NCBI GenBank assembly: GCA_951406725.2
Contig: OX597835.1
Location: 35,278,001-35,342,000 of the forward strand
Length of the DNA: 64,000 bases
Origin: Octopus vulgaris
Taxonomy: Eukaryota
Direction: 5' to 3'
The first letter of the stretch is position 1; the number at the start of each line of letters is the position of its first letter. The position numbers and the translations under genes are program-made. The notes under the pieces were generated by a model. That model was not told the DNA's origin, did no database searches, and saw only the letters and a list, made by a program, of their open reading frames with translations. Positions 4,002-56,774 of this stretch are shown here, in pieces.

Positions 4002-4046
4002 TGAACCCGAAGATTGCAGAATTCAATGCATGAAAGTACTAGTTCA
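4002..4046 (+). ncRNA. Type-I minimal hammerhead ribozyme (U4C variant)
   Basis: tgaac-CCGAAGA-t-tgca(gaattcaa)tgca-t-GAAA-gtac-TA-gttca. Confidence 0.7.
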
Positions 4047-4210
4047 ATCAGAATGAATATTTAACATTCTACTATTTCATTTTATTTTATTCAATTATAA
4101 TATATTATCTTATAATATATCATTATAAGATTGTAAATAAAACGTGAAAATCAGACAAGGTTGGAATTCTTTTTATTAATATATTCTTCTATACACAATC
4201 ACACACACCC

Positions 4211-4665
4211 ATATATATATCTATCTATATATATATATATATATATATATATATATATATATATGAATAGATAGATAGATAGTGAGACAGATAGTGGCAG
4301 GCGTGGCTGTGTGGCAAGAAGCTTGCTTCACAACATGGTTCTGGTTCCACTCCCACTGTATGTATGTATGTATGTATGTATGTATGTATGTATGTATGTA
4401 TGTGTGTGTGTATGTATGTGTGTATGTATGTATATATGTATGTATGTGTGTGTATGTATGTATATGTGTGTGTATGTATGTATGTGTGTATGTATGTGTG
4501 TATGTATGTATGTATGTATGTATGTATGTATGTATGTATATGTGTATGTATGTATGTGTGTATGTATGTATGTGTGTGTATGTATGCATGTATATATGTA
4601 TGTATTAATATATGTATGTATGTATGTATGTGTGTGTGTATGTATGTATGTGTGTATGTATGTAT
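4211..4665. repeat. (TA)n and (TATG)n microsatellites; the (TATG)n tract interrupts a SINE head (4295-4755)
   Basis: Visible simple repeats; SINE head resumes after the tract. Confidence 0.9.
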
Positions 4666-5534
4666 GAACTTTGGCCGAGTGCCTTCTGCTATAGACTCTG
4701 GCCAACCACACCCTTGTGAGTGGATTTGGTAGATAGAAACTGATAGAAGCTCTTTGTGTATATATGTAACATATGGTATAATTATAAACAGGGCAAATTT
4801 TAACCATTTCTCCGCTGACTGAAAGAATGATGAACAACCTTAATTGATTTTCGAACCTTACTGGGTTCGTATTGGAGCAATCTCGAGTATAACCAACCGA
4901 AAATGCAAAGATAATCTGGAACTCGACTGAGGAAAGAAAGCTCCGAATGAGCCGTTCTCGTATCGTCCATCTGGATGTTTTGTTATTCCTTTTTTGTATC
5001 ACCTAAGTGTCTGGATGTTTTGCGTTCTTCTCCCCTTTCATATATATATATATATATATATATATATATATATATATATATATGTGTGTGTGTGTGTGTG
5101 TGTGTGTGTGTGTGTGTGCGTGTGTGTGTGTGTGTCTGTTTGTCGCCTCATCACCACTTGATGACCGGTATTGGCGTGCTTATTTACCCATAACCCTAGC
5201 AGTTCGGCAAAATATAGCGATATCTATCTATCTATCTATCTATCTATCTATCTATCTATCTATCTATCTATCTATCTATCTATCTATCTATCTATCTATC
5301 TTTCTATCTATCTATCTATCTATCTATCTATCTATTTGTCTATCTATCTCTGTCTGTCTGTCTGCCTTTCTATCTGTCTGGCTTTCTGTCAGTCTGTCTG
5401 TCTGTCTGTCTGTCTGTCTGTCTGTCTGTCTGTCTGTCTGTCTGTCTGTCTTGCTATGTTTGTGGTGAGAAAGATAGAGTTAGAGAATGAAAGAAGGAGG
5501 GTGAGAGAGAGAAAGAGAGAGAGTGAGAGAGAAA

Positions 5535-5760
5535 TCAATAATTTTCTCTATGGACGATTGCTTAATGGATAAATTCTGGAAGAATCTTATAACCATCTTT
5601 AATTATTTCGAAATGACCGTTGATTTCCTGGATGTTATCTTAAACCTTTACAATCTAAAGAAACTCTTTATATCCACAACAATTCCAACCACCCGCATGC
5701 TGTTTTGGGAAATCTAGTTACAGACATGCATGAGAAGACCATTTCAAATCGCTCTCCGAA
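5535..5760 (+). pseudogene. Highly degenerate Penelope-like RT fragment
   Basis: Translation MDDCLMDKFWKNLITIFN..VDFLDVILNL resembles the YxDD..FLDV region. Confidence 0.35.
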
Positions 5761-54143: not shown

Positions 54144-54720
54144 TACGTAGTGTTATCAAAAAGTTCCAGGACTAATTATGTTTAATAAAAAATAACTCGA
54201 AGGAGAGGGGCTTTCTCCGTCCGGGTGCGGATCCGTGGAATAAGCTGCCGGACGGGATAGTGAAGATGCCGACGACCGCTCGGTTCAAAGTCTCCCTTGA
54301 CTACAAATGGCCTGAACTCTTTGCATGAACACCACCCTGTACATAACTCCATGTCCCCCTACATGGTCTTGCTTTTTGCTTTTTGAGCCAAAAAATTAAC
54401 TTAACTTATCTTAAGTTTTAACATCGTCTCTTTTGAAATAGTCGCCTTGCGCAGCAGTACACCGCTCATAGCGTTCCTGTCACTTTTGGGACCCGGCCTG
54501 GAAGTTGTTTTCCGTAAGCGAGCTGAGGACCTTCCGACAATAGTGTTAAAACGACGACCTTTGAGCTGCATTTTCATTTTTGGTAAGAGATGGAAGTCCG
54601 CAGGCGAACAGGGCGGATGCGCAAGCGATGCCATGTTGTTTTTTGGCGAGAAACTCATGTGTGAGGAGAGCTCGGTGACAAGGTGCATTGTGGTCGTAAA
54701 GACGACAATGTCCCATGACA
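54144..54720 (-). mobile_element. Mariner 3' fragment interrupted by a CR1-like 3' end (about 54199-54390)
   Basis: TIR-like tacgtagtgttatcaaaaagttccaggact; LAHPPCSPADFHLLPKMKMQLKGRRF; insert encodes ..DPWNKLP. Confidence 0.75.
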
Positions 54721-54946
54721 CCGAGCTATGGTTCAGAGTTCGGATCCTTTGTCATGTTTTATTCTCTATCTCGCTTTACTTTAACTTGTATTATGTATTC
54801 TTTGTGAACTATAGTCAGACCCATCTACCGGTTATAACCCGGAAATGTTTTTCATGCACTGTTAGTACAGCCAATATCCTACAGGCGATTACAACATGCC
54901 AAGCGAAACCTAGTATATATAACAAAGTACCTTACTTAAAGCATGA

Positions 54947-55047
54947 CACCTGATGATGGATACAATACAACTAGCTGTGCAAACAACTAGCTGTGCAATA
55001 TCCCACTCGTAAGGGATAGATGCAGGATTATCGAAACGATCGTTGTG
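54947..55047 (+). ncRNA. Type-I hammerhead-like ribozyme with large stem-II insertion
   Basis: cac-CTGATGA-tggata...tatc-GAAA-cgatcg-TT-gtg; CCAAT at 54871, TATA-like at 54914, AATAAA directly downstream. Confidence 0.72.
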
Positions 55048-56774
55048 CTGAATAAAGTTTGTTGCTAGCTCTACTTTTCGTTTCTTTCATTAATTATATA
55101 TATATATATATATATATATATATATATATATGTGTGTGTGTGTGTGTGTGTGTGTGTGTGTGTGTGTGTGTGTGTGTATGTATGTATGTATGTATGTATG
55201 TATGTATATATATATATATATATATATATATGTGTGTGTGTGTGTGTGTGTGTGTGTGTGTGTGTATGTATGTATGTATGTATATATATATATATATATA
55301 TATATATATATATATGTGTGTGTGTGTGTGTGTGTGTGTGTGTGTGTGTGTGTGTGTATGTATGTATGTATGTATGTATGTATGTATATATATATATATA
55401 TATATATATATATATATATATATATATATATATACATATCTTATATCTGTAAATATAATGTGACAATTATTCGGTAGCCATGATAAAACTCCGTGTTTCG
55501 GATGTCGGGGCGAAAACCCACGCCAGTATCTATGGACATGCGCACTTACGCGATTACTTTGAACATTTTTACTCCCTTACCTTTACTCCCTCCCTTACAT
55601 AGCGGTCATTCTATTAGCTCTTTTGTCTTAACAACGGTCAATCACACAGTAATTTCCCTTTGTTTTAACGGTCATTTTCATAGCATTTTTTCCGATGGCC
55701 AGATAATTTATCATAGCTACCGAATAATTGTCACATATTCTATTTAAAGATAAATTCCTCTATTTACATAATATCGAGGTCTCTTTCATTCTTTTGTTGT
55801 CTTGTCATTTCTATCAATATATATACACACATATATATATATATATATATACATATATATGATATATGCATATAATTTAATGTACACCGTATGATAGTTT
55901 CTTCCAATTAAGACACGTGGCTGGAGTACTTTGTTGTTGAACTTATCTTAACGAAATTGTAATATGTGTGTGTGTGTGTGTATGTGTGTGTGTGTATTCA
56001 CATGAATGACGATGAAATGATAATTGTCAAATATTAGCAAACGTTCAAAGTTACCTCTCTTATTTCCCTACCATCACTACCACCACCACTACCACGACTA
56101 CCACCACACCACGATAGCGTCAACAAGAGTGAACCGGATTTCCCCCATATTTCTATGTGAAGATATCTCGAATACATGCTATGATTACATGTAGAAATAT
56201 GCTTTCTAGTATTCGTTGTAGCAAACAATGTCTTGCAGATAACATAAGTATCATTGTCATCATAATCATCATCCTCATCATTATCAGTTAATATCTTCAA
56301 ATTCCAGATAGTGCTGTCTCGAGACTCTTAGGGCTAGCTAGTCGGTTTCCACACCGAATAAGAGAACAAGGGCACAAAATTTCCTCCAAAAGGGGAGCTA
56401 GTCCATCGCTAATAATGGTTAATGGTTACTCATTATTAGTTGGACTGGAGCATCGTGAATTTAAGTGTTTTGCTAATAATAATAATAATAATAATAATAA
56501 TAATAATAATAATAATAATAATAATAATAATAATAATAATAATAAAAGCAAAACACAACACAGCACCCGGTCCAGAAATCGAAACCACGAACTTTGGAAT
56601 ATCGTGAGAATAGTATCCTAACCATTAGACCACGCGGCTTCCTTCATGCCGAGTCTAGTGATCAAATCGAAACCGCATCGACAACTCCATCATTCAGCGT
56701 CTTTTATAAATTTTCAACGACTTCTCTCGCTTCTTCTTGAAGGCAACCAGACGATTCTTAACACTACTAAGCTT

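Follow-up and report, generated by a model that had tools for sequence, protein, structure and literature searches.

Hammerhead folds in a (TA)n-rich stretch of the Octopus vulgaris genome as probable ends of diverse Penelope-like elements

Why should a single stretch of octopus DNA hold a dozen hammerhead-ribozyme folds of several unrelated kinds, most of them close to runs of (TA)n? The question was raised by an earlier note on 64,000 nucleotides (nt) of Octopus vulgaris DNA (GCA_951406725.2, contig OX597835.1, positions 35,278,001 to 35,342,000), a stretch that we call the window and number from its first letter; it has 36% GC, is rich in microsatellites and belongs to an assembly of 2.8 Gb in 227 contigs, about 30 of them of chromosome scale. 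The answer that we consider very probable is that the folds are minimal type-I hammerheads at the 3′ ends of mostly 5′-truncated or inverted copies of about ten families of Penelope-like elements (PLEs), most of which lie in (TA)n. That the folds, including those with variant cores, cut themselves is a prediction from the fold.

All 12 complete folds, which the earlier note had assigned to about 10 families, and both partial ones were confirmed at the positions given for them. Our descriptor, which allowed at most one core mismatch, required at least three pairs in stem I and in stem II and accepted an optional unpaired base beside stem II, recovered 10 of the 12 together with an extra site at 52398-52474, giving 11 sites. 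The folds at 18469 and 54947 failed because their stem II is mispaired or decayed, and only two window folds passed a strict canonical descriptor. The dinucleotide-shuffle check that the note had proposed supported the excess: 100 local shuffles of the window, with the microsatellites kept in place, gave a mean of 1.63 and a maximum of 7, and none reached the window count (an earlier control of 20 shuffles had a mean of 0.95 and a maximum of 3). When C11.1 and a palindromic helix III were added, neither of which the descriptor demands, 8 window sites stood against a mean of 0.12 and a maximum of 4 in 100 shuffles.

The 12 folds represent 10 families, with 14831/45925 and 20347/41912 as pairs, and every fold occupies a fixed place within a dispersed repeat family. 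The families range in age from 100% identity (F4007, the family of the fold at 4002) down to about 75% (36362 and 54947). The core, described earlier as CUGANGA-like, is CUGANGA in six folds (10946, 22249, 36362, 45188, 51854 and 54947), whereas the other six carry C4 (4002, 18469), U6 (14831, 45925) or C9 (20347, 41912). The claim that most folds lie upstream of a (TA)n junction proved correct: a (TA)≥5 run begins 28-188 nt downstream of stem I in 9 of 12 (54947 counted by hand), the folds at 20347, 36362 and 45188 being without one, and 22% of random positions have such a run within 350 nt.

The copies of each family were taken from 274-2,045 first-look candidates, of which 40 were scored, and genome-wide counts were made with exact patterns whose core positions were wildcards and whose reversed control was 0 for every family. 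The 14831 family has 16,332 exact genome copies, with U6 in 96 of the first 100 listed; the 4002 family has 1,154 (C4 in 98 of the first 100 listed), the 18469 family 1,156 (C4 in 97) and the 20347 family 3,239 (C9 in 95). Patterns confined to the 3′ half gave 7,788 exact copies for the 45188 family and 1,818 for the 10946 family, the latter with 21 nt. Because the wildcard positions show a near-uniform variant base in each family, the core deviations are family traits and not decay. In the U6 family, 41 of 43 copies have CUGUNGA, and among these each of the four bases occurs at the free core position 7 (18/10/8/5). Sister families differ in their stems. In families fixed for a C4, U6 or C9 core, cutting is likely to be slow.

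The window turned out to be unusually rich. A generic pattern for the type without helix III had 52,047 genome matches against 714 for its reversed form; it takes in the 14831 family and at least two further families, and 100 listed matches mostly have complementary stem II arms and the unpaired base after position 9. Together with five non-overlapping families this sets a floor of about 66,500 motifs genome-wide. Sixty evenly spaced 10-kb stretches, 600 kb across 29 contigs, held 18 consensus-core folds against 0-2 per shuffle, and the loose descriptor gave 47 against 17-24 in shuffles, or one per 22 kb above background. C11.1 with a palindromic or absent helix III is found in 8 of 11 window, 17 of 47 sampled and 2 of 118 shuffled matches. 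By the tight criterion 17 remained in the sample, whereas six shuffles together kept 2. This density of about one per 35 kb extrapolates to about 79,000 genome-wide (Poisson 46,000-127,000, an interval that clustering widens). With 8 by this criterion, the window is about four times the genome mean, and the earlier figure of about one ribozyme per 5 kb is a local one. Among the generic-pattern matches we also saw another abundant family with a consensus core and a GGCUG/CAGCC stem II (e.g. C1:585829) and a family with C4 and a three-base loop II, neither of which occurs in the window.

Two folds, 4002 and 14831, are indeed joined to PLE coding sequence of the GIY-YIG type, as the earlier note had held. 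The fold at 4002..4046 (+; core CCGAAGA, palindromic helix III) belongs to an autonomous-type PLE, F4007, which covers 1..4225 (-) and has its 3′ end about 540 bp beyond the left edge of the window. The inverted 5′ arm of this copy lies at about 3313-4225 (+), with 1-426 the reverse complement of 3315-3740; the sequence adjoining the left edge (locus L021) extends the inverted repeat and carries a second identical hammerhead, so that the terminal inverted repeat is about 965 bp with one hammerhead per arm. Open reading frame (ORF) 2, at 237..2561 (-), encodes a reverse transcriptase (RT), a CX4CX2C linker and a GIY-YIG endonuclease (EN) with CCHH and has two premature stops here; a selenocysteine reading was rejected, the stops being TAA and copy-specific. 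The 3′ part of ORF1, at 2468..3334 (-), overlaps ORF2 in the -1 frame, and its 5′ part was lost at the inversion. Intact relatives are head-to-tail units of 4271 bp with an ORF1 of 430 amino acids (aa) and a 775-aa RT/linker/GIY-YIG frame, which is complete in 58 of the 150 best matches (hand count). Forty of 40 listed copies are 100% identical over 301 nt, and the CX2-5CxxC linker pattern is present in 104 of 104 long relatives. ORF1 matched no Pfam family at threshold, and its Atlas matches, below 0.9, were hypothetical proteins, commonest in Mollusca.

The overlap of ORF1 and ORF2 is about 90 nt long (2468-2561, -) and contains a T TTT TTT heptamer in phase, which 24 of 24 copies share without change. 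ORF2 lacks an early ATG, and none of its 120 best relatives is longer than 803 aa, in a search up to 1357. Frameshifting and non-AUG reinitiation are both candidate routes for its expression; a frameshift stimulator 3′ of the heptamer was sought, and no stable fold was seen (-4 to -8 kcal/mol). The F4007 unit was present in 20 of 23 sequencing-run matches, all of them assembled contigs whose RNA origin is guessed or unspecified. Four run contig sets cover the unit, and one contig of 4291 nt jumps back by 4270, with no intron joint listed; such contigs fit tandem DNA, read-through RNA and a circle alike. The runs of two other organisms share 76-84% of F4007 words, and the one compared differs at about 20 places. 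The family is thus shared with close relatives. A metagenome scan for relatives returned one short contig only. Relatives of the RT include entries with molluscan names, and at least six close PLE-RT relatives are filed under bacterial gill-symbiont names, in short contigs that are probably host DNA.

GIY-YIG coding links were found for 6 of the 10 families (two of Neptune/Nematis type, three of Hydra type and one other). RT and EN were both seen for F4007 and 14831, thumb and EN for 10946 and 45188, and EN only for 20347 and 22249. The 14831 family continues upstream into a second RT-EN of Neptune/Nematis type (loci L314-L316), and the 20347 family has a CCHH-type GIY-YIG remnant as its partner. 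A Hydra-type protein lies upstream in the 10946 family (L309), a Hydra-type thumb and EN in one insertion of the 45188 family (L129) and a Hydra-type EN in one other insertion of the 22249 family (L002/L003). L309 and L129 show the Hydra-type features, namely no CCHH, a CxCX5C-type linker, CxxC and CxH near the C end and (TA)n, while L003 shows the C-terminal motifs only. In the 10946 family (L308, L309), the thumb and linker of the Hydra-type protein are separated by a long insert of low complexity, and a 3′ untranslated region (UTR) of about 2 kb precedes the hammerhead.

The junctions indicate how these elements end. When the end was measured as the distance from an anchor by the cleavage site to the first TA run, that run began at two fixed points in most young families: 138-139 (12/30) and 171-172 (14/30) in F4007, 41-47 (7/27) and 117-127 (19/27) in 10946, 42-44 (12/33) and 112-118 (18/33) in 18469, 52-62 (15/28) and 172-176 (11/28) in 22249, 42-49 (4/24) and 113-121 (16/24) in 45188, and 90 (2/19) and 203-210 (12/19) in 51854. 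The 14831 family has a single main end point at 101-122 (20/24). No TA run was nearby in 15 of 33 copies of the 20347 family and in 5 of 13 of the 54947 family, and copies of the 36362 family end in varied DNA. The diverse (TA)n-targeting system proposed earlier thus survives as diverse PLE families with hammerheads, mostly in (TA)n, but it does not include the 36362 family or those 15 copies of 20347. Short ends coincide with TA-rich letters inside the element. In tandem F4007 copies, the long end is an internal (AT)6-7 tract that immediately precedes ORF1 of the following unit, and the C by which the element interrupts this tract is retained at four of the long-end junctions.

Of 40 classifiable inverted pairs, 32 joined a long end to a short one, 8 joined two short ends and none joined two long ends (p ~2.5e-5; two more were unclassified), where a short end is one that lacks the long-end marker, a class that may include decayed long ends. 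The bias fits the one-sided tail described in PMC8557442. A 5′ junction is visible in 16 F4007 copies: in 11 of them TA repeats follow internal sequence without a gap, evidence for a TA target that was there beforehand, and in the remaining 5 the neighbour is inverted element DNA. Selection by the RT protein rather than by the fold gave 29 loci (L276-L304), every one of which extends through the hammerhead beyond the cleavage site.

We propose that the GIY-YIG endonucleases of these families would nick (TA)n arrays, their likely targets. Transcription of tandem copies would yield RNA with two hammerheads, which could pair with each other by way of the palindromic helix III and would then cleave at a low rate. 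The template of reverse transcription would keep its cleavage site intact, either as uncut tandem RNA or as a re-ligated circle; because insertions extend 30-190 nt past the cleavage site, the template is presumably not the linear cleaved monomer. Priming may rely on base pairing between the nicked (TA)n target and a short internal tract of the element that is rich in TA, and early termination with fold-back would leave the short truncated and head-to-head remnants that fill the window. Such a cycle could tolerate slow cutting by the C4, U6 and C9 cores. Published work shows that such hammerheads have weak activity and cleave in dimeric form, and it includes the proposal of a circular template (PMC4209133; PMC6765202).

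Several points weigh against the interpretation as hammerhead-bearing PLE ends. Hammerhead_1 of Rfam (RF00163), another check proposed earlier, had no match at its gathering score of 34 bits in the 10 family loci; the best fold (22247) reached 17.9 bits, the 36362 fold gave no match, and the best 150 of 474 matches in a whole-window E-value scan were microsatellite-driven and of miRNA type. Predicted monomer folds agree with the hammerhead shape only partly. Covariation, also proposed as a check, was weak in the 36362 family: its stems pair in 85% of cells against 17-36% when slid, and one compensatory pair is clear (44/500 and 13/500 shuffles), but its 7 double changes were reached by 44 of 500 shuffles, and the helix III swaps may be CpG decay. 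The family loci are the 12-30 best matches per search, which favors young, window-like copies, clades were assigned from motifs rather than a tree, and the scoring of short ends has the weakness given above. No coding partner was found for 18469, 36362, 51854 and 54947 within about 1.5 kb upstream at 15-20 loci each, a search extended by two 10-kb stretches for 51854 and one for 54947. An apparent link of 54947 to an EN was rejected, the EN belonging to a neighbouring 14831-type element on the other strand. Long upstream sharing in the 51854 and 20347 families was likewise set aside as duplicated flank or the same locus seen twice. The suggestion that microsatellite masking hides these motifs did not hold, because they are complex sequence 28-190 nt off the TA runs; it is the Rfam threshold that misses them.

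Other explanations have to be weighed against these data. Chance matches in AT-rich repetitive DNA would explain some hits of the loose descriptor, which has a background of 17-24 per 600 kb and of up to 7 in one window shuffle, but the window count was unmatched by any of the 100 shuffles, the generic pattern exceeds its reversed form genome-wide (52,047 against 714), and each fold recurs at a fixed place in its repeat family, so we regard chance as having next to no probability. It is somewhat unlikely that the folds mark PLE ends as we propose while the variant-family hammerheads no longer cut and persist in a structural or protein-binding role, or are carried along as passengers that the element can do without. 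The C4, U6 and C9 lineages have been amplified to 1,154, 1,156, 16,332 and 3,239 exact copies, the youngest family with open frames, F4007, carries C4, and insertions leave the predicted cleavage site intact. Moreover, the changes U4C and A6C reduce the activity of other hammerheads (PMC3088659), Naiads, which lack hammerheads, have spread and the possibility of parasitism is raised by their authors (PMC8557442), and 8 of 9 Xenopus retrozyme dimers showed no cleavage (bioRxiv 2026.07.22.740005). However, apart from the variant base the core is conserved in these families, as are C11.1 and the palindrome, whereas position 7 is free to vary, and U4C still supports viroid infectivity (PMC3088659).

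We think it unlikely that some families are non-autonomous units, like retrozymes or miniature inverted-repeat elements (MITEs), which move by way of a short RNA of their own and use PLE proteins in trans, rather than truncated PLE ends. The four families without a coding partner would fit this, as would the derivation of animal retrozymes from PLE ends and the 18469 family, where the stretch common to the copies reaches no more than about 30 nt beyond stem I on its upstream side in each of the 19 readable copies (20 loci) and mostly ends at a fold-back point; this one family may be a short non-autonomous unit. On the other hand, the family loci hold single or inverted copies and no head-to-tail arrays of 170-400-nt units, and in six families the copies pass gradually into coding DNA and have their 5′ ends at scattered places, although the upstream view is only about 1.5 kb at most loci. 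A more doubtful idea is that the element itself makes or lengthens the junction (TA)n, its telomerase-related RT repeatedly copying an internal UA tract onto the target end. The long end does coincide with the internal (AT)6-7 tract, and a single flank averages 15.3 TA units (25 ends) against a background of 10.0, or 18.9 when length-weighted; because one flank alone averages 15.3 units, the two together may exceed what targeting predicts. Yet TA also stands at 5′ truncation points, some ends carry only 2-6 TA units, and target duplication with ordinary slippage could account for the lengths. We would give equally little credence to the boldest synthesis, by which octopus-type genomes carry the densest hammerhead load described (near 100,000), PLE lineages were selected for weakened or non-cutting cores, and uncut or circular RNA was primed in a telomerase-like manner from the internal UA tract, lengthening the TA microsatellites found throughout the genome.

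The remaining folds, read as PLE ends, lie as follows. The fold at 10946..11023 (-) has a consensus core and forms the 3′ end of a Hydra-type PLE copy (about 10838-11675) with TA on both sides. A 5′-truncated PLE of Neptune/Nematis type at 13600..14966 (+), with linker, GIY-YIG and 3′ UTR, sits between two TA runs and contains the minimal fold at 14831..14868 (+; CUGUUGA, no helix III beyond ACGU); the second U6 copy, at 45925..45960 (-; CUGUAGA), lies in an element at 45835-45987, also between TA runs. The fold at 18469..18506 (+; CCGAUGA, weak stem II) is part of a short element (18449-18540) with TA runs on both sides. Nearly all copies of this family (L135-L154) fold back at a short palindrome just upstream of stem I, and the junctions vary by copy, giving small elements with two opposed hammerheads. 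The C9 fold at 20347..20391 (+; CUGAUGC) lies away from a TA run, and its second family copy, at 41912..41956 (-), is in an inverted pair (41791-42050) with TA on both sides. The truncated Hydra-type end at 21681..22362 (+), with an inverted long-end arm at 21681-21803 and TA on both sides, holds the fold at 22247..22334 (+), whose core and stems are fully canonical.

Consensus cores are likewise found at 36362..36409 (+), in an old family with 75-86% identity among copies that is not TA-targeted, at 45188..45248 (-), in a copy of a Hydra-type family that has TA at its 5′ side only, and at 51854..51975 (+), where stem II is long and stem I has 3 bp. The extra fold at 52398..52474 (+) is decayed and lies in a copy with an internal deletion; its family is old, and consensus cores are present in the remaining members. 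The consensus-core fold at 54947..55047 (+; end coordinate counted by hand) is also decayed and belongs to an old family. A partial fold of the 45188 family at 55482..55504 (-) has lost its 5′ core and lies in an inverted pair (55435-55823). The other partial fold, the 3′ half at 30572..30592 (-), stands at an inversion junction beside a TA run; another copy of its family (L227) has the whole fold. Its insertion (30526-30640) is just upstream of a homeodomain exon at 29728-30615 (-; PF00046, E 1e-21), which we take to resemble HMX/NK5. The window also contains an abundant, partly tandem, 230-bp family of SINE-like (short interspersed element) repeats at 5989-6228, 35690-35929, 39165-39400, 40641-41095, 62557-63143 and about 12 more places, and a second repeat family (e.g. 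6716-7160, 36553-36920) that often adjoins TA runs.

These observations bear on what the hammerhead does in the life cycle of Penelope elements, a question that the published work leaves open (PMC4209133, PMC8557442). Sister families of four core types (consensus, C4, U6 and C9) have all been amplified here and form a natural series in which that role can be tested, the very young F4007 family could serve in vitro or cell assays, and the two fixed end points per family are candidate nick and priming sites. Annotation that relies on Rfam misses short PLE ends by the tens of thousands.

As to known systems, Lunse, Weinberg and Breaker reportedly described dimer-cleaving PLE hammerhead variants with a diminished palindromic stem III and an association with PLEs. 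Hammerheads in PLEs, TA targeting, tails and inversions are already published (PMC4209133, PMC8557442), while the large lineages fixed for variant cores and the density and number of motifs in the genome appear, provisionally, to be absent from published descriptions. The folds share with the minimal PLE hammerheads of PMC4209133 the type-I topology, the unpaired base after position 9, C11.1 and a helix III that is either palindromic or missing. In both cases one genome contains many families that are unrelated, the motifs mostly stand singly on truncated PLEs, and opposite-strand pairs occur. The folds described here differ in number (about 2,000 and 1,300 in Schistosoma, 4,000 in coelacanth and 9,000 in Xenopus, against at least about 66,000 here) and in the core, the variant named in the available text being U3-A8, whereas C4, U6 and C9 are family-fixed here. 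The 10946, 22249 and 45188 families share with Hydra-clade PLEs (PMC8557442) a C-terminal EN without CCHH, a CxCX5C-type linker, CxxC and CxH motifs, the hammerhead and (TA)n insertion, although the linker of 10946 is CxCX3CX5C, unlike the CxCX5C type; that source gives few families outside cnidarians, and three of the ten families of one window are of this kind. F4007 and 14831 resemble Neptune/Nematis PLEs in their RT, CX2-5CxxC linker, GIY-YIG with CCHH, tandem and inverted pseudo-long terminal repeats (pLTRs), one-sided tail and microsatellite bias. The separate 430-aa ORF1 in -1 overlap sets F4007 apart from typical members, a two-ORF Neptune having been reported in killifish (PMC12602865), and the tails, for which 30-40 bp has been published, measure from 32 to about 120 bp here, depending on the family.

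Non-LTR retrozymes (PMC7229834; bioRxiv 10.64898/2026.07.22.740005) likewise have type-I hammerheads, very high counts, dimer dependence and a PLE origin, but they are tandem non-coding units, whereas the elements here are dispersed ends, many with coding DNA upstream. Tandem units of 170-400 nt, by which retrozymes are recognized, were not seen, the only head-to-tail tandems examined being the coding 4271-bp units. No report of cephalopod or octopus hammerheads appeared in the literature searched, which comprised main texts and lay mostly outside subscription journals, and 31 PLE families with recent activity are named in the available part of a repeat annotation for an octopus, with 0 occurrences of "ribozyme" (PMC13282606). 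Hammerhead counts of about 5,000 in Mytilus and 126,247 in the axolotl have been given (PMC7229834); the latter, in 28.21 Gb, corresponds to about one per 220 kb, against about one per 35 kb in the octopus.

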